Positions 21,316 to 62,786 of a DNA stretch of 64,000 nt are shown one piece after another. Every line of letters starts with the position of its first letter. Position 1 is the stretch's first letter. The translations under genes and the position numbers were made by a program. The DNA lies in NCBI GenBank assembly GCA_034669905.1, contig JAXMOL010000005.1, positions 134,218 through 198,217 on the forward strand, read 5' to 3'. Below the pieces are notes generated by a model that searched no databases, was not told the DNA's origin, and worked only from the letters and a program-made list of their open reading frames with translations. Source of the DNA: Candidatus Hydrogenedentota bacterium. Lineage in GTDB: Bacteria > Hydrogenedentota > Hydrogenedentia > Hydrogenedentales > JAEUWI01.

Positions 21316-21765
21316 CTACGTCAACATGCTCTTCAATTCGCCCATGAACTCATTGAGGTCCTTGAACTGGCGATAGACCGACGCAAAGCGCACATAAGCC
21401 ACTTCGTCGAGCTGTTTGAGTTTAGTCATAACGGCTTCGCCCACGGCGACGGTATTCACTTCGTGCTCGGTGGAGTTGAAGAGCTCCCGCTCGACTTCGT
21501 CGATGAGGGCGTCTACCTGTTCGAGACCAATAGGACGCTTTTCCACCGCCTTCAGGATGCCGCTCTTCAGCTTCCAGCGATCAAAGTTTTCGCGGCGCCC
21601 ATCCTTCTTGATGACCATCTGGGCCACTTCTTCGATACGTTCGTAGGTCGTAAAGCGCCGTCCACATTTCATACATTCGCGACGACGGCGGATAGCATCA
21701 CCTTCTTTTGACGAGCGGGAATCCACGACGCGACCGTTGGTATCGTTACAAAAAGGACAACGCAT
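21316..21765 (-). CDS. nrdR: Transcriptional repressor NrdR
   Basis: [32 protein letters not shown]-cone and [13 protein letters not shown]. Confidence 0.98.
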
Positions 21766-21850: not shown

Positions 21851-21902
21851 CATCCACATATTGTATGGCTATGAGCCTAACAAATACCATATACGGTGTC
21901 AA
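21851..21902 (-). promoter_or_regulatory. nrdR promoter with two NrdR-box-like sites
   Basis: TTGACA(21902-21897)-17nt-TAGGCT. Sites ATACCATATACGGTGT (21884-21899) and CATCCACATATTGTAT (21851-21866) are 33 bp apart. Confidence 0.6.
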
Positions 21903-53602: not shown

Positions 53603-53883
53603 TTTTCACGCCCCTTGGATTTAAACATGGCAAGCATGCGGTGGGTAACCCAATAGCCACCAACGACATTGATACTCGCGAAAACGACCGCGAAGAATCC
53701 GAGCATGGTGGCCAGGGTATCATTGTCCAGCTGCCCCGCGGCCAGCAGGGCGCCGACGATGGTGATCCCCGAAATCGCATTGGCCCCCGACATCAGCGGT
53801 GTGTGAAGTTGGGAGGGCACCTTGTTAATCAGCTCTACGCCAAGGAAGATGGCGAGCACAAAGGTAAACAGCAGCAGGATCAT
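53599..53883 (-). CDS. pntAB: NAD(P) transhydrogenase alpha2 (membrane) subunit
   Basis: VPSQLHTPLMSGANAISG and INVVGGYWVTHRMLAMF. Confidence 0.95.
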   Translation of the reverse strand: MILLLFTFVLAIFLGVELINKVPSQLHTPLMSGANAISGITIVGALLAAGQLDNDTLATMLGFFAVVFASINVVGGYWVTHRMLAMFKSKGREK

Positions 53884-55016
53884 GGTGTGGCCTCCTGACT
53901 CGTGCGAATCATTTCATTACGAAGGGTGCCCTCCTGAACAATGAGGCACCCGTCCATGATCTCGTCCTCGGTGTCCAGGGAGAGTGACTGTGTTTCCTGG
54001 TCCCAGAAATGGGTCAACAGATTCGCCAGGTTCGCCGCGTACATCTGGCTCGCGTGTACGGGAACTTTCCGGGCAAGGTGGGGCAAGCCAATAACGGTCA
54101 CGCCATGACGCTGAACGGTTTCACCCGCTGACACGCCTTCCACATTGCCCCCACTGTCCACCGCGCCATCCACGATAACGCTGCCCGGTTTCATGGAGGC
54201 AATCATGGCGTCGGTGATAATCTGGGGAGCCCGGCGTCCAAACACCTGTGCGGTGGTAATGACCACGTCCACCTGGGCCACGACCTCGGCCATGGCGGCC
54301 TGCTGGGCTTCCCGCTGCGCTTCGGTCAGGGCCTTGGCGTAGCCGTCCCGGGTCGACCCAGTCTCCCCCAAGTCCACCTCCACAAAACGCGCCCCCAGCG
54401 AGCGAACCTGCTCGGCCACTTCCGGACGGGTATCGAAGGCTTCCACGCGGGCCCCCAGTCGCTTTGCCGTCGCAATGGCCTGCAGCCCGGCCACCCCCAC
54501 GCCAATGACCAATACGCGGGCCGGTTTCAGCGTACCCGCCGGGGTCATCATCATGGGAAGAATCTGCCCGAGGGCGTTGGCCGCCTGAAGGACGGCCACA
54601 TAGCCTGCCAGATTGGCCTGGCTGCTCAGGGCATCCATTTTCTGCGCCAGGGTCGTCCGCGGCACCAACTCCATCGCGATGGCGCTGAGTCGGGCCGCCA
54701 TCACGGCCTGTACCCGCTCCGGGTCCGCGAAGGGATCGAGGAAACCGATGTAGAGGGCCCCGGCTTTCATCCGCTGGAAGTCATTTGGCGTCGGGGGAAG
54801 AATCCCCAGCACCACGTCTGCGTCACCGATGGCGTCCGGGCTGCTCAGAATGGCCCCCGCCGCCGTGAAATCTGCATCGTGCCAACCACATGATTTCCCG
54901 AAATCGGAAGGTATCTGCACGGTCATGCCCAGGGAAACCAGCTTCCGTACCGCATCGGGAGAAAGGGGGACACGGGGCTCGGTGCAATCGGTGGCGTGTT
55001 GCGCAAATACTTTCAC
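53880..55016 (-). CDS. pntAA: NAD(P) transhydrogenase alpha1 (domain I) subunit
   Basis: PRTTLAQKMDALSSQANLAGY, MMMTPAG, GVGVAGLQAIATAKRLGA and GGNVE; GTG start behind GGGAG. Confidence 0.95.
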   Translation of the reverse strand: MKVFAQHATDCTEPRVPLSPDAVRKLVSLGMTVQIPSDFGKSCGWHDADFTAAGAILSSPDAIGDADVVLGILPPTPNDFQRMKAGALYIGFLDPFADPERVQAVMAARLSAIAMELVPRTTLAQKMDALSSQANLAGYVAVLQAANALGQILPMMMTPAGTLKPARVLVIGVGVAGLQAIATAKRLGARVEAFDTRPEVAEQVRSLGARFVEVDLGETGSTRDGYAKALTEAQREAQQAAMAEVVAQVDVVITTAQVFGRRAPQIITDAMIASMKPGSVIVDGAVDSGGNVEGVSAGETVQRHGVTVIGLPHLARKVPVHASQMYAANLANLLTHFWDQETQSLSLDTEDEIMDGCLIVQEGTLRNEMIRTSQEATP

Positions 55017-55120
55017 GGTTTGGTCTCCCAGGTTTCGCCCCGCCGTGGCCCCCATAACGGGCGACGGAAAGCGCATGTGGCTCCGCCTCCTCCCCCACAT
55101 CTTCACCACAGCTCAAAACG

Positions 55121-55150
55121 AGTATAGGGCGTAAAAATAGACCATGTCAA
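55121..55150 (-). promoter_or_regulatory. Putative sigma70 promoter of the pnt operon
   Basis: TTGACA-18nt-TATACT. Confidence 0.65.
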
Positions 55151-55327: not shown

Positions 55328-55500
55328 ACACCATATATAGCGGATTGTGGTACCACAAGAAGATCAGCCATATTGTCCAATAAACACAACATTTAGTGGT
55401 AGAGGACGCAATGTTATTACGACATCCCCAAGGGTTGTAGATAAAAAAAACCGATTTGTACACGAAAAGGGTTGACAACCCCTATATGTTGTGCTAGGAT
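55328..55500 (+). promoter_or_regulatory. Sigma70 promoter with three NrdR-box-like sites
   Basis: TTGACA(55472)-17nt-TAGGAT(55495-55500). Sites ACACCATATATAGCGG (55328), ACACAACATTTAGTGG (55384) and CCCCTATATGTTGTGC (55479, inside the spacer). Confidence 0.7.
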
Positions 55501-55506
55501 GACCAC

Positions 55507-55691
55507 GGTGTTTGGAACAAGAGACTGTTGACACAACAGCACTCAGCGTCGTCAGGGAATACCGCAGCCCAAGACCCCTGACATAAACCGCTACCGTGAC
55601 CCTCTTGCGCCTAGAACACGGAACTGTGTTCCAAACACTCCCGCACATGAGGGCGGTGGATTCCCAAGGTCCACCGCCCCCTTCCTTTTTT
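55507..55691 (+). ncRNA. Stand-alone structured small RNA, 6S-RNA-like rod
   Basis: Starts at the predicted +1. 12-bp closing stem (55508-55519 with 55627-55638) and nested stems, then an intrinsic terminator; no credible ORF. Confidence 0.7.
55651..55691 (+). terminator. Intrinsic terminator of the small RNA
   Basis: GGGCGGTGGA...TCCACCGCCC then CCTTCCTTTTTT. Confidence 0.8.
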
Positions 55692-55733: not shown

Positions 55734-55762
55734 TTGACAGGTCCTCCTTCAGCCGGTACAAT
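55734..55762 (+). promoter_or_regulatory. Sigma70 promoter of the downstream secreted-protein pair
   Basis: TTGACA-17nt-TACAAT. Confidence 0.7.
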
Positions 55763-57204: not shown

Positions 57205-57258
57205 TTGTGCGGTAGTTCGTGCAGTTCGTTACTCCCGTTCCAACATGTTGGGTCTCTG

Positions 57259-59274
57259 ATGAAAACATTGTCACGCACCATGATACCCGTGGTCTTCGGC
57301 CTGCTGGTGGGGTTGCTCTACAGCCCCCACCTCATGGCCCAGGGCGATCACGCCTCCAGCCGGGAACTCTCCGTCTACACCGGGGCAGCGCTCACGGTGG
57401 AGTCGGTCGATTCCGTTAACAGCCGGGAGATCTCCGTCTACGCCGGCCCCTTATTGAGCACCCAGAGTACCCAGCAGGTAAACAGCCGGGAGCTCTCGCT
57501 CTTTGTCGGTCAGTTGCTCATCGCAGATGAAATTCTCACCGTATCCAGCCGAGAAGTTTCGCTATTCGAAGGCCCTGTCCAATCGGTCTTTGCCCTCAAC
57601 CACATCAGCAGCCGGGAAGTTTCCTTTTCCTCTACCGCCCCCATTGTGATCGGCGGTGAAGGTGAAGGTGAAGGTGAAGGTGAAGGTGAAGGTGAAGGTG
57701 AAGGTGAAGGTGAAGGTGAAGGCGAAGGCGAAGGCGAAGGCGAAGGCGAAGGCGAAGGCGAAGGCGAAGGCGAAGGCGAAGGCGAAGGTGAAGGTGAAGG
57801 CGAGGACCCCTGTGCCGGTGAGACTCTGGACACGGATGGCGACGGCCTCACAGATTGCGAGGAAGGCCTCCTCGGCACGGATCTCAATGCCGTTGATACG
57901 GACCAGGATGGCATGCCCGATCCCTTCGAGGTAGCCTTTGGGCTCAACCCTCTGGTAGCCGACGATGCCATAACAGACCGAGATGAGGACGGCTTGAACA
58001 ACCTGGACGAATACCTGGCCAATGCCATCCCCACCGACCCGGACTCTCCCCGTCGGGTGCTCCATGTTGCGGTGGACGGTGTCGACCAGGTTGAAGGCGG
58101 CGGGCTCCAGAGTCCCTTCCGAACGATAGGCTTCGCCTTGGAACAGTACGCCCAGTCTGGCTTTGACAAGGTGCAGATTCTCCTGGCTCCGGGCACCTAT
58201 GTGGAAGATGTCGTACTCCTGGCAGGGGTAACCCTCACAGGGAGCGACGCCGGCACTTCCGAACTTATGGGAAGCATCACCGGGGCCGATCAATGCACCA
58301 TTCGTGCCCTCGACATTCTCTCTGTCAACGGCACGGAGATGCTCCTGATCGCCGACAACGTGAAGCTGCGCATCGAACGGGTTCGCTTCATTGGCATGGA
58401 CACGATCCGGGGTGCGCAGGGTGTGGTCGCCATGGGCGAAAACGCAAGCGGCATTCTGGTATCCGAGTGTGACTTTATCGACCTCTCCATCGGGATAAAC
58501 ATCTTCGACGGTGTGCCCACCATTCGGCGCAACATCTTCGTCGACCCCGCGACGGCAGGCATCGTGGTGCAGGAGAGCGCACTAATCGATCCCGAGCAGG
58601 GCCTGAGCAGTGCCAGCAATGGTACCGTTGGCTTCAACACGTTCACCTTCAACAGTGGCATTGCCAACCCGGTCCCCTCCCCGACGGCCGTGATCAACGA
58701 AACCGATCAGGTGCTGCGCTTGGAAAACAACGACTGGGGCGTGGATGACGATGAGGCCGTCGAAGCGCTCATCGCCGGGGCCAGCGATTTCCAGCCCAAA
58801 CTGCTCGTTGGCTCCGCCGTGCTGGCCTCCAGCCTCTTCTGCACGGTCTGGTCAGATTCCGATCAGCACCGCCTGCATGACGTGAGTGTCTCCCTGGAAG
58901 GGAGCGACTTCGCGCCTATTACCGACAATGAAGACGGGGTATACGCCTTCCCCATCGTGCTTCCGGGTCAGTATGCCGTGCGCTGTGAATCAACTGGTTT
59001 CGAAGATGCACAGCGCGGCATCGTGGTGGGTTCGGGTGAGCTTAAATCCGTGACCATCGCCATGGCGAGTGCTTCGGTCGGTGGTGAAGGTGAAGGAGAA
59101 GGAGAAGGTGAGGGAGAAGGCGAGGGTGAAGGTGAAGGCGAAGAACCGCCCACCATGGATTGCCATGCGAACGGCGGGGTCGCCATCGGGTCACGGCTGG
59201 GCGACTTTCTCCTCGTGGGATTGATGTTGGTCCTGCTCGCTGGCAGTGTCTTTGGAGCCCGCCGCAACGCCTGA
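57259..59274 (+). CDS. Surface protein: SRExS repeats, (GE)n tracts, Ca-binding DxDGDG repeats, beta-helix, carboxypeptidase-regulatory-like domain, C-terminal anchor
   Basis: Signal peptide; DTDGDGLTD, DTDQDGMPD and DRDEDGLNN; SPFRTIGFAL...LAPGTYVE; DGVYAF...PGQY; Cys-TM-RR tail. Confidence 0.85.
   Translation: MKTLSRTMIPVVFGLLVGLLYSPHLMAQGDHASSRELSVYTGAALTVESVDSVNSREISVYAGPLLSTQSTQQVNSRELSLFVGQLLIADEILTVSSREVSLFEGPVQSVFALNHISSREVSFSSTAPIVIGGEGEGEGEGEGEGEGEGEGEGEGEGEGEGEGEGEGEGEGEGEGEGEGEGEDPCAGETLDTDGDGLTDCEEGLLGTDLNAVDTDQDGMPDPFEVAFGLNPLVADDAITDRDEDGLNNLDEYLANAIPTDPDSPRRVLHVAVDGVDQVEGGGLQSPFRTIGFALEQYAQSGFDKVQILLAPGTYVEDVVLLAGVTLTGSDAGTSELMGSITGADQCTIRALDILSVNGTEMLLIADNVKLRIERVRFIGMDTIRGAQGVVAMGENASGILVSECDFIDLSIGINIFDGVPTIRRNIFVDPATAGIVVQESALIDPEQGLSSASNGTVGFNTFTFNSGIANPVPSPTAVINETDQVLRLENNDWGVDDDEAVEALIAGASDFQPKLLVGSAVLASSLFCTVWSDSDQHRLHDVSVSLEGSDFAPITDNEDGVYAFPIVLPGQYAVRCESTGFEDAQRGIVVGSGELKSVTIAMASASVGGEGEGEGEGEGEGEGEGEGEEPPTMDCHANGGVAIGSRLGDFLLVGLMLVLLAGSVFGARRNA
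57655..57804 (+). repeat. Hexanucleotide tandem repeat encoding (Gly-Glu)25
   Basis: (GGTGAA)11(GGCGAA)11(GGTGAA)2 GGCGAG; a second degenerate (GE)10 tract at 59083-59142. Confidence 0.95.
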
Positions 59275-59909: not shown

Positions 59910-62786
59910 TTACGTTGCGGGAGCAAATAAGGCAATCAATTCGGGCAGTCCGGACGCTTCGGCGTAGGCTCGGGCGCTTTTCCCCGACGAATCGACCCCG
60001 TCGGGCGAGGCGCCCGCCTCAAGCAACCAGGCCACGGCGCCCACATGGTGGCCTTCAATGGCACGGTGCAGCGGCGTCAGCCCCCGTCCGCTATGCTCGG
60101 GCTGGTCCAGCCCAATACCCTGGGCATGCAGCTCGCGCAGGCAGGCGACCTGCCCATAGGTGGCGGCCCAATGAATGGGGGCCCGCCCCAGGGTCTCGGT
60201 GGTGGCGAATTCCGGATAGGAGACCAGCAATTCTTTCAGCCGCTCCACCGCTCCGTTACTGGTGGCAGCCCGATAACTCTCCGTAATCGCGGCATCCAGA
60301 AAGGCCCGGGCGCGCAGTAAGGCCGACGCCTTCTCCGGTCGTTCCGGGCCACCGGCCGCTTCCAATTGCACCAAACGGGCATCCAGCACGCCCCGCGGCG
60401 TCTCGCCCTTTTCATTTTGCACGCAAAGCGATGCCCCGGAGGCCAGGAGTTGACGAATAGCGGTCTCCTCGGCTTCCCGTGCCGCAAGGTGGAGCGGGGT
60501 GTCTCCCCCGCTGTTCACGGCATTTACATCCGCACCTCGGTTGCATAACTGGCGCACGGCGGCCACGTGCCCCGCAGCGGAAGCCAGATGGATGGGGCGG
60601 TTCTGTTGCTCATCCTCCCCATCAACCGGTACACCGGCATTGGCCAGACTCTCGATCACCATCGTATTCCCCCGCGCTGCGGCCCCGTGCATGGCGCTGC
60701 GACCCGACGCGTCTGCACCGGTTGCATCGGCAACGACGCCAAGCAAATAGCGGACGGAAGCAATCCCGCCTCCACGAACGGCCAGATGCAGGGGGGACAC
60801 GCCGTTATGGTCTACCTGATTGGGATCCAGTCCCGATTCCACCAGCCATGTGAGGGTCTCCACCGAACCAGTCGTTGCAGCGGGAAAGAGCAGACTGCGC
60901 CCCTCCTCATCCTGGCTATCAAGGGGGAGTCCCTGGCCGTGCAAATAGCGGGCCAGGCTGGTGTGTCCCTTTTCCAGGGCGAGACCGATGGCATTTCGAC
61001 CCCGGTGGGCGACAGCCTCTTTCGCGGCGCCACGCTCCATCAGCGCACCCGCGGTCTGCTGGTGCCCCCCCATGACGGCCCGTAGCAAGGGCGTACAGGC
61101 CTCGTTGTCCTGCGCTTCCAGTGGCGCACCACCTTCCAACAGGCGTATCGCGGTGGCATCATGGCCGGCACCCGCCGCCCGATGCAACGGGGTCCGTTGC
61201 CGGTGATCCCGGGCAGCCACATCCGCACCGGCACGAGTCAATCGATCGACGGCCTCCATATGCCCCCCGGCTGCAGCCAGGTGAAGGACGGTTTCTGCTT
61301 CGGGGGACCGGCTCTCCAGGTCTCCCCCATGCTCCAGCATCAGCGCCAGCAGGCCCGTCTTGCCCCGTTGGGCAGCGAGCAGAAAGGGAGACCATCCTCC
61401 CTCATTCAACGCATTCGGATCGGCACCGTGCGCCAACAACACGCGAAGGAGCTCCCCGTCATCTCTATCTACCGCCACATGGAGCGCCGTGCGCCCTTTC
61501 GTGTCCGACAGATTGGCATCGCCCCCCTGGGCCAACACAAAGGCGACCACATCGTGATTACCAGAGGCAACGGCCTTGTTCAGTAGCGTCCGCTCCATAC
61601 CGGTGGTCGTGAGTCGGTTGACCGTATCCCCATGGGCGAGCAGTTCCCGCGCACAATCCAGGTGCCCGAGATGAAGCGCCAGACCCATGGCCGTGTTGCC
61701 CTCCAGATTGGGAGTATCCCTATCCGCACCGCGCTCAATGAGCAAGCCAATCATGTCGCAACGCCCGGTCGTAACGGCGGCCATCAAGGGGGTCGATTGA
61801 GAGGTGGCATTGGGATGGTTCGCAAGGAAGGGCAAATCGTCGAGCAGTTCCGTGACGCCCCGACGGTCTCCAAATCCCACCATCATGTGAATGCCCAGGT
61901 GCTGATTCCGACTCCGAAAATAGGCCGTCACATCCCACTGCTCCGCCTTCGCCGCCAGCACGGCCGGAATCGAAAGGACGTTCGGGTCCGCCATGCTCTG
62001 CATATCGGCGCCCAGTTTCAGGAGGTGCTGCACCGCAAAGACATCACCTGCTTCGGCCGCCATATGGAGGGGCGTGTAGTTGGCCTGGTTACGCGCTTCG
62101 ATCCATGCCCCCCGTTGTTGCAGCGTTTCCAAGGTGTAAATGTGTGTACTTCGGGCCGCCAGGTGCATGGCGCTATTACCGAGCAAGTCGACTTCATCGA
62201 CCTGTGCGCCCCGGGCCAACAGGGCATCCATGATATAGGGTTGGTTTTCGGCGACGGCCGCGAGGAAGGGTGTGCGCCCGGAATCATCCCGGGCATCCAG
62301 AGCAGCGCCCCCGTCCACCCGGTCGATAACTGCATAGAGGTCGCCAGCGCGAACAGCCTGATGCACCGACCCATAGGGCGCCAGTCCGGTCACGCGCCAG
62401 GCCCGTGGGGCGAGGGGGTGCACGACGCCCCGGGTAAAAAGATCGATTAAAGCCGCATAGGTGGGCTTACGTTCCTGTTGGGACAGGGGCCGGGCGGCAA
62501 CCGCAGTGGGTTCCGTCTCGGGGGCAACGGGTGCCCTTTCGACCGATGCCTCCGCGGTGTCGGAAGGCGCATCGGTCACGGGCGCCGTGCTCACCGCTTC
62601 CCTGGGGGCAACCGGTTGTCCCGTAATGGGGTCAAGGACCTGATCTTTGTCGTATTCGGGCAGCACCCGTCGCACGGGGGCCACCGTCGTTTCGGAACTG
62701 GATTCGCTGGTCTGGTCCTGGGAGCCACCACAGCCCCCCTGAATCACCAACACGCTGATGGCCGCGATCGTAAGCAGGATACGCAT
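59910..62786 (-). CDS. Large ankyrin-repeat protein, probable lipoprotein
   Basis: Signal with QGGC; roughly 20 GxTPLHxA-type ankyrin repeats. Confidence 0.9.
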   Translation of the reverse strand: MRILLTIAAISVLVIQGGCGGSQDQTSESSSETTVAPVRRVLPEYDKDQVLDPITGQPVAPREAVSTAPVTDAPSDTAEASVERAPVAPETEPTAVAARPLSQQERKPTYAALIDLFTRGVVHPLAPRAWRVTGLAPYGSVHQAVRAGDLYAVIDRVDGGAALDARDDSGRTPFLAAVAENQPYIMDALLARGAQVDEVDLLGNSAMHLAARSTHIYTLETLQQRGAWIEARNQANYTPLHMAAEAGDVFAVQHLLKLGADMQSMADPNVLSIPAVLAAKAEQWDVTAYFRSRNQHLGIHMMVGFGDRRGVTELLDDLPFLANHPNATSQSTPLMAAVTTGRCDMIGLLIERGADRDTPNLEGNTAMGLALHLGHLDCARELLAHGDTVNRLTTTGMERTLLNKAVASGNHDVVAFVLAQGGDANLSDTKGRTALHVAVDRDDGELLRVLLAHGADPNALNEGGWSPFLLAAQRGKTGLLALMLEHGGDLESRSPEAETVLHLAAAGGHMEAVDRLTRAGADVAARDHRQRTPLHRAAGAGHDATAIRLLEGGAPLEAQDNEACTPLLRAVMGGHQQTAGALMERGAAKEAVAHRGRNAIGLALEKGHTSLARYLHGQGLPLDSQDEEGRSLLFPAATTGSVETLTWLVESGLDPNQVDHNGVSPLHLAVRGGGIASVRYLLGVVADATGADASGRSAMHGAAARGNTMVIESLANAGVPVDGEDEQQNRPIHLASAAGHVAAVRQLCNRGADVNAVNSGGDTPLHLAAREAEETAIRQLLASGASLCVQNEKGETPRGVLDARLVQLEAAGGPERPEKASALLRARAFLDAAITESYRAATSNGAVERLKELLVSYPEFATTETLGRAPIHWAATYGQVACLRELHAQGIGLDQPEHSGRGLTPLHRAIEGHHVGAVAWLLEAGASPDGVDSSGKSARAYAEASGLPELIALFAPAT

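Follow-up and report, generated by a model that had tools for sequence, protein, structure and literature searches.

The analysed window, a stretch of 64,000 nt from a Candidatus Hydrogenedentota contig, carries on its plus strand a small RNA gene of about 185 nt, terminator included. The start of the RNA at 55507 was placed from the promoter spacing and the conserved first bases. The promoter hexamers TTGACA and TAGGAT, separated by a spacer of 17 nt, the terminator and the separate promoter of the next gene (TTGACA-17-TACAAT, 55734-55762) all lie where the original prediction had put them. Promoter-like sites numbered 3, compared with 0.5 ± 0.8 in shuffled sequences, and TTGAC[A/T] precedes the RNA in 78 of 85 loci, in 76 of which it stands 35-36 nt ahead of the first base. 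The features of the locus are as follows.

21316..21765, minus strand: nrdR, the likely regulator, 34 kb from the RNA in the same window
53880..55150, minus strand: pntA (NAD(P) transhydrogenase alpha), divergent neighbour with its own promoter (55150-55121), not part of the RNA
55328..55343, no strand assigned: distal NrdR-type box 3 (17.1 bits), fits the published core pattern
55384..55399, no strand assigned: distal NrdR-type box 2 (17.6 bits), 95 bp upstream of the main box
55472..55477, plus strand: -35 hexamer TTGACA (promoter scan)
55479..55494, no strand assigned: main NrdR-type box filling the promoter spacer (20.0 bits)
55495..55500, plus strand: -10 hexamer TAGGAT with TG extension (promoter scan, column counts of homologues)
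55507..55691, plus strand: small RNA gene with terminator (fold, homologues, RNA-seq of relatives)
55507..55519, plus strand: closing stem P1, 5' strand (covariation)
55525..55539, plus strand: hairpin P2 (predicted fold, homologue alignment)
55545..55592, plus strand: arm P3, AGCG/CGCT and GTCAGGG/CCCTGAC with an 18-nt loop (fold, covariation)
55562..55573, plus strand: loop motif CCGCAGCCCAAG with the core CAGCCC, the repeated unit of the family
55594..55621, plus strand: hairpin P4, CCGTG/CACGG (fully paired in 19 of 25 homologues)
55604-55611, plus strand: CTTGCGCC in the P4 loop, invariant in the 25-homologue alignment
55627..55639, plus strand: closing stem P1, 3' strand (predicted fold, covariation)
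55640..55650, plus strand: single-stranded linker CCCGCAC
55651..55691, plus strand: intrinsic terminator with a nearly invariant core stem sequence and the loop CCCAAG (55663-55668)

Of 96 loci, 22 have pntA as the divergent neighbour of the RNA and 6 have it downstream in the same orientation; the loci in which it adjoins the RNA in one or the other of these two arrangements include L026, L201, L203, L206, L236, and L237. Since NADPH supply feeds ribonucleotide reduction, pntA and the RNA may be co-regulated. Besides pntA, no conserved protein gene was found next to the RNA. Farther downstream in the window lie a gene for a predicted secreted protein of 689 aa (57205-59274, plus strand), in which Gly-Glu repeats of a kind common in this phylum form two long tracts, and a gene for a 958-aa ankyrin-repeat protein (59910-62786, minus strand). 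In 11 other genomes, the gene downstream of the RNA and convergent with it is also an ankyrin gene.

The context bears out the original view of a separate transcript: the promoter and the terminator are kept order-wide, the downstream genes differ between loci, often pointing toward the RNA, and the body of the RNA is spanned by RNA-seq contigs from relatives. A leader or attenuator of the downstream gene, in which a CCGCAGCCC loop would act as antiterminator by pairing with the 5' arm of the terminator, is largely refuted by gene context and is hardly credible. Such a role would be in keeping with the 8 of 9 pairs that the CCGCAGCCC loop can form with GGGCGGYGG, as read from the sequence, and with the 6 loci having pntA downstream on the same strand. 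By a crude count, however, 53 of 93 loci have their longest downstream ORF on the opposite strand, the next gene here has a promoter of its own, and the arm is changed to GAGCGG in 20 RNAs whose loop is unchanged. Among the homologue loci, neither a fixed co-oriented class of downstream genes nor a covarying antiterminator was found.

The four RNA-seq runs considered out of 8 listed (X1, X2, X3, and X6) come from close relatives and not from this strain, and their contigs show neither strand nor transcript ends. Contigs of X3, with 0-6 differences per piece, span 55521-55647 at a depth of 93-1420, and those of X6 span 55526-55643 at a depth of 12-48. X1 and X2 reached a depth of 2-6; one of the X1 contigs continues across the promoter and hence may represent DNA. 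Neither the promoter nor the terminator hairpin, each well conserved in the genus, is covered in X3 or X6, where the contigs end on adapter at 55643-55647. This pattern of coverage fits a transcript starting near 55507, and the stop at 55643-55647 reflects either processing of the 3' end or a library bias against the hairpin. The empty flanks provide no control for silence, as the runs were picked with this very stretch and the flanking genes of the relatives may be less than 80% alike.

Fold and distribution of the RNA family

The RNA belongs to a family that is lacking from Rfam 15 and is kept across one uncultured bacterial order. At gathering scores, the search of Rfam 15, 6S models included, gave no match within the window; with the threshold relaxed to E = 10, it gave no more than chance-level rows, none of which was 6S. 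Homologues were found by BLAST in 32 of 61 genomes, and a covariance model built from 25 of the BLAST homologues matched 117 of 135 genomes, nearly always as a single copy. The matched genomes include 78 of the 86 good ones and represent all 13 families of the order. One of the 117 matches is partial and weak (23 bits) and is not counted as real, the second matches in 6 genomes are weak (two were inspected, both false), and one miss of the model turned out on closer search to be a true divergent member. The assignment to Ca. Hydrogenedentales follows a named record that passes the model (127.7 bits). Two genomes of the phylum outside the order contained no family member, only a terminator-like match of 20 bits; viral contigs gave no match, and neither did 5 genomes to which loci from other phyla had led. 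A pattern scan of GTDB, dominated by chance matches and with 1 of 80 passing the model among the matches listed, says little on presence in other phyla.

Compensatory changes support the helices. In a MAFFT alignment that was not fitted to the model, 17 of 32 pairs contain double-sided changes, a number reached by none of 500 shuffles, and slid controls are 34-48% paired versus 94%. A 70-sequence alignment fitted to the model, and thereby biased toward the structure, gives double changes in 28 of 32 pairs; given that kin are not independent, none of these figures is to be read as a probability. The closing stem P1 has double changes in 5 of 10 modelled pairs, with 98% of cells paired, and P3 has them in 5 of 6. 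Helices P1, P3, and P4 and the terminator demonstrably belong to a conserved family, whose members range in length from 152 to 262 nt. Hairpin P2 is a variable, genus-level element; in other lineages its place is taken by a longer arm that bears a second CAGCCC.

The RNA is more stable than any of 200 shuffled sequences (fold z = -4.9 with the terminator, -3.6 without it). The two ends pair as originally claimed, without a flaw between 55507-55519 and 55627-55639, and GTCAGGG (55551-55557) with CCCTGAC (55576-55582) as well as AGCG/CGCT are present both in the sequence and in the predicted fold. The predicted fold is nevertheless a junction with three hairpins (P2, P3, and P4) inside the closing stem, not the proposed rod. 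A third inner stem, CAC/GTG, is fully paired in only 4 of 25 homologues, its GTG being used by P4 instead. The large two-sided bubble is filled, on its 5' side by the hairpin at 55525-55539 and on its 3' side by the conserved hairpin of CCGTG (55594-55598) and CACGG (55617-55621), paired in 19 of 25 homologues. The competing hairpin GAACACG-GAAC-TGTGTTC does exist at 55614-55631, but no more than 5 of 25 homologues, all of them from this genus, carry it in full.

These differences bear directly on the suggestion of an unusually short 6S RNA. The case for an additional, compact 6S-like RNA, bound to RNA polymerase and freed from it by pRNA synthesis, could draw on the long stem formed by the paired ends, on the deep RNA data of relatives, on short words shared with the 6S RNAs of the lineage (e.g., CCGTGA), and on truncated B. 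subtilis 6S-1 variants of ~80 nt, which still work in vitro according to the available text of PMC8876501. Against it, the search gave no 6S row (RF00013) at the gathering score or at E up to 10, the canonical 6S RNA of this genome is encoded elsewhere (C19:97014-97202, 59 bits), and a profile of 13 lineage 6S RNAs matched 83 homologues with a best E of 1, while the reverse search gave 0 matches; nor did the model R1 match L001. The hairpins on both sides of the supposed bubble, the confinement of the complete switch hairpin to 5 homologues of one genus, and the length range of the branched family point the same way. Across the phylum, RF00013 matches 96 of 135 genomes, and none of the listed places coincides with the RNA by inspection. 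We regard this 6S-like reading as very improbable; with the real 6S RNA of the lineage located elsewhere, a false 6S call is removed. The other suggestion, a new class of small RNA, is supported by order-wide conservation, by the gene's own promoter and terminator, and by RNA-seq of relatives, and the locus is almost certainly a real, stand-alone small RNA gene of a non-6S kind. Signal recognition particle RNA, RNase P RNA, and tmRNA were also considered and rejected, the canonical genes for all three being elsewhere in this genome.

The linker sequence CCC(C)GCA (55640-55647) is similar to TTCCCTGC, the 5' end of 6S RNAs in this lineage, and consequently is complementary to the 6S 3' end in several genomes. 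This complementarity is weak in the present genome and is probably due to chance.

NrdR-type boxes at the promoter

NrdR senses DNA building blocks and represses operons for ribonucleotide reductase. The original prediction overlooked a box of the NrdR type in the spacer of the RNA promoter and two further boxes upstream. The main box is a 16-bp palindrome, and the published core pattern is present in 74 of 79 homologues. The palindrome agrees with the NrdR consensus as quoted in the available text of PMC4009431, and the six key positions given for the box in that of PMC13584703 (C4, A6, A8, T9, T11, and G13) reach 0.95-0.98 in a matrix derived from the homologue promoters; the matrix was anchored with an NrdR consensus, and the raw columns give the same pattern. 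It scores at least 12 bits upstream of 22 of 27 nrdD genes, 14 of them with a partner box 31-32 bp off, and 20.6 bits at 2 of 7 nrdA/J loci, against a background of 108 sites of at least 11 bits in 7.4 Mb.

The arrangement of boxes at the RNA promoter is unusual in its distances. A second box at the usual distance (31-32 or ~42 bp) was observed in 10 of 79 homologues by the published pattern and in 2 of 77 by the matrix. Of the 62 homologues with a further box, 34 have the nearest one 82-84 or 94-98 bp upstream, at about 8 or 9 helical turns, a clustering inflated by shared ancestry. In this genome the distance from box 2 to the main box corresponds to ~9 helical turns. Box 2 differs by one base from a synthetic box bound by NrdR, and single boxes are not bound by E. 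coli NrdR, as far as the available text of PMC13584703 goes.

Taken together, the boxes suggest that the RNA promoter is probably controlled by NrdR; the scarcity of partner boxes at the usual distance, the failure of E. coli NrdR to bind single boxes, and the poor box at this genome's own reductase gene speak against such control. If this control holds, the sensor of dNTPs has an RNA output, and the geometry of its operator may differ from the 31-32 bp pair of other bacteria.

Further boxes and reductase genes were observed in this genome. Two weak boxes located 33 bp apart upstream of nrdR, near 21866 and 21899 (11.6 and 9.4 bits), suggest autoregulation. The box at the genome's own reductase gene scores only 1.4 bits. 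The sole PF02867 reductase gene (C62:11935-12900, minus strand) has a leader that by eye resembles a cobalamin riboswitch, and a second ATP-cone protein (C22:104339-104926) matches neither PF02867 nor TIGR02487. Single NrdR-type boxes at C6:113893, C48:38582, C37:52488, C94:3861, C13:22323, and C3:34726 are followed by genes that look like mraZ, murC, a gene ahead of ftsA, thyX, mutL, and clpP, names read from translations only; with boxes at such genes, the regulon may extend to thymidylate synthesis and cell division. At C70:1524-1661, just beyond the 3' end of an integrase-like gene, lie the genome's two highest-scoring boxes (25.8 and 25.0 bits) and a third one; the ORF that follows them is cut off by the contig edge.

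Conserved loops and their possible partners

The conserved features of the family are the CAGCCC loops, a CUUGCGCC loop, and the NrdR-type promoter box. The AGCCC core occurs in 0, 1, 2, 3, and 4 copies in 4, 20, 47, 13, and 1 of 85 loci, respectively, at least one copy thus being present in 81 of the 85, two of which are false second matches. Its mean unpaired probability is 0.78, versus 0.36 for all G/C (151 motifs in 79 RNAs). In a divergent homologue (G038) the stems are unrelated and three loops read UCAGCCCC, one of them inside the terminator. The P4 loop sequence CTTGCGCC is present in 60 of 85 loci and missing in 25, and it is predicted to be half unpaired (0.50). In one family (f11), six loci from three genera (L187, L188, L191, L192, L195, and L196) carry TTGCGCC or TCGCGCC paired in a hairpin with its own complement, and their P4 loop often reads CTCCTCCT, which is anti-Shine-Dalgarno-like. 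A small peptide was rejected as the product of the gene: judged by eye on the 25-homologue alignment, a GTG-started frame through CCGTGACCCTCTTGCGC is interrupted by indels and lacks synonymous changes.

Our tentative preference is for a trans-acting small RNA repressed by NrdR, a chain of steps that, taken whole and with its loop pairing included, we hold somewhat short of an even chance. NrdR loaded with dATP and ATP would bind the spacer box, perhaps together with a distal box 8-9 turns away, and block RNA polymerase, so that the RNA would be made when DNA precursors are low. P1 would then close a junction holding one to four hairpins outward, and the exposed C-rich loops of these hairpins would initiate base pairing to G-rich stretches of target RNAs independently of Hfq. 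Two points favour pairing over protein titration: the analogy with the 6C and cuckoo RNAs, and the negative search for Hfq in this genome, which is 96% complete. The RNA would in this way likely tie the supply of DNA precursors to the control of other genes.

The search for targets compared 643 orthologue pairs between this genome and 2.0 of the 5.1 Mb of one relative, using our own gene calls and start regions only, about 13% of the called genes, and no site kept its position. The numbers of shared top-ranked sites (5% level) were near chance for loop 3 (1, with 1.0 expected) and loop 4 (0, with 1.2 expected), and the linker gave 4 such sites with 1.5 expected. Limited as the screen is to start regions, to our own gene calls, and to a part of the relative's genome, it lowers the pairing model but does not refute it. 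Near starts, the complementary word GGGCTG is no commoner than expected by chance (rank 14 of 30 permutations). Among individual candidates, the IHF mRNA was rejected as a target, with a tandem GGGCTG in 2 sister genomes only and any GGGCT in 7 of 30; flagellin and recA, which ranked high in both genomes, were rejected because the sites are at different positions.

The same loops could instead serve as docking sites on an NrdR-linked sponge or scaffold, each CAGCCC loop binding one copy of an RNA-binding protein by the logic of CsrB and RsmZ with another protein. This reading, which we consider unlikely although the most serious competitor, gains from the 1 to 4 copies of CAGCCC on unrelated stems and even in terminator loops, from the high contig depth in RNA-seq of relatives, and from the negative search for mRNA targets together with the fact that CAGCCC is not an anti-Shine-Dalgarno sequence. 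It lacks a candidate protein, pntA being the only gene conserved alongside, and a varying number of hairpins does not discriminate between titration and pairing, since the cuckoo RNAs as described in the available text of PMC4615179 vary in the same way. A sponge for CsrA itself was rejected: csrA is present, but 76 of 83 RNAs have no unpaired GGA.

Contact with the ribosome was considered as a further possibility, with the P4 loop CCUCUUGCGCC(U/A)A pairing with the 5' strand of 16S helix 26 and modulating ribosome assembly or activity at DNA-precursor shortage. The 5 genomes first tested all allow 11-14 pairs, several of them G-U; helix 26 is the best site across the whole 16S rRNA in 8 of 15 genomes, in 6 of which at most 1 of 30 shuffles equals it, and one double change was seen by eye in genome G046. 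The match was, however, found after 30 motif-rRNA combinations, of which 3 beat all 25 shuffles, and the 6 good cases are kin from two families. It is at chance level in family f13 and absent from the tested genomes of f3, f10, and f11, and cognate pairs have no advantage. The site is, moreover, locked in an 11-bp helix and contains GGAGG, so that any anti-Shine-Dalgarno-like loop would match. We therefore rate contact with helix 26 as improbable. Two other rRNA partners were rejected: 23S helices 89-92, since the site sought is missing from the 23S rRNA of the lineage and the duplexes are no more stable than those of shuffled sequences, and the 16S region around position 1254, which the loop matched in 4 of 5 genomes, the exception (G132) having an RNA that keeps the loop.

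A broader variant, which is a long shot, would have NrdR switch an abundant non-coding RNA through a long-range operator spanning 8-9 turns. At a shortage of DNA precursors this RNA would throttle translation or the cell cycle, possibly by pairing of P4 with helix 26 while the CAGCCC loops bind another partner, the whole amounting to a dNTP checkpoint that works through RNA.

Relation to known systems

The analysis adds to the known structured RNAs an order-wide family absent from Rfam 15. The literature searched yielded no description of a small RNA with an NrdR box or of an RNA motif from Hydrogenedentes/Hydrogenedentota, although the supplements of motif catalogues could list such an RNA. 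In that literature NrdR is not reported as the regulator of an RNA gene, and the small RNA family is new while being of a known general kind.

Repetition of one short motif over several loops is shared with CsrB and RsmZ, protein-titrating RNAs with GGA loops; such GGA loops are absent here. Size class, paired ends, and a promoter of its own are shared with 6S RNA (RF00013), which in the available text of PMC8876501 is a rod with an open central bubble, whereas the present RNA is branched and matches neither the model nor the profile. The NrdR regulon, to the extent described in the available text of PMC13584703 and PMC4009431, likewise has a 16-bp box with C4, A6, A8, T9, T11, and G13 over the promoter, and in this lineage the matrix from the RNA promoters also picks out nrdD and part of the nrdA/J promoters; the differences are that the putatively controlled gene here is a non-coding RNA and that the partner box 31-32 bp away is mostly missing, the distal boxes lying 8-9 turns off.

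The closest parallels to the proposed trans-acting pairing are two families of small RNAs. The 6C RNA of Actinobacteria, which represses dnaB according to the available text of PMC6486639, has in common with the present family hairpins with C-rich loops, lineage-wide conservation, a host without Hfq, and a link to DNA replication. It differs in having runs of C where the loops here contain CAGCCC and CUUGCGCC; the present RNA, in turn, has a closing stem that joins its ends, no Rfam match, an NrdR-type box, and a pairing activity that is inferred. In the cuckoo RNAs of Alphaproteobacteria, as presented in the available text of PMC4615179, the number of hairpins and their stems vary around a single shared loop motif, just as they do here. 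That motif is CCUCCUCCC in the cuckoo RNAs and CAGCCC in the present family, which belongs to another phylum and has no model match, and the hairpins that are adjacent in the cuckoo RNAs are here enclosed by P1.
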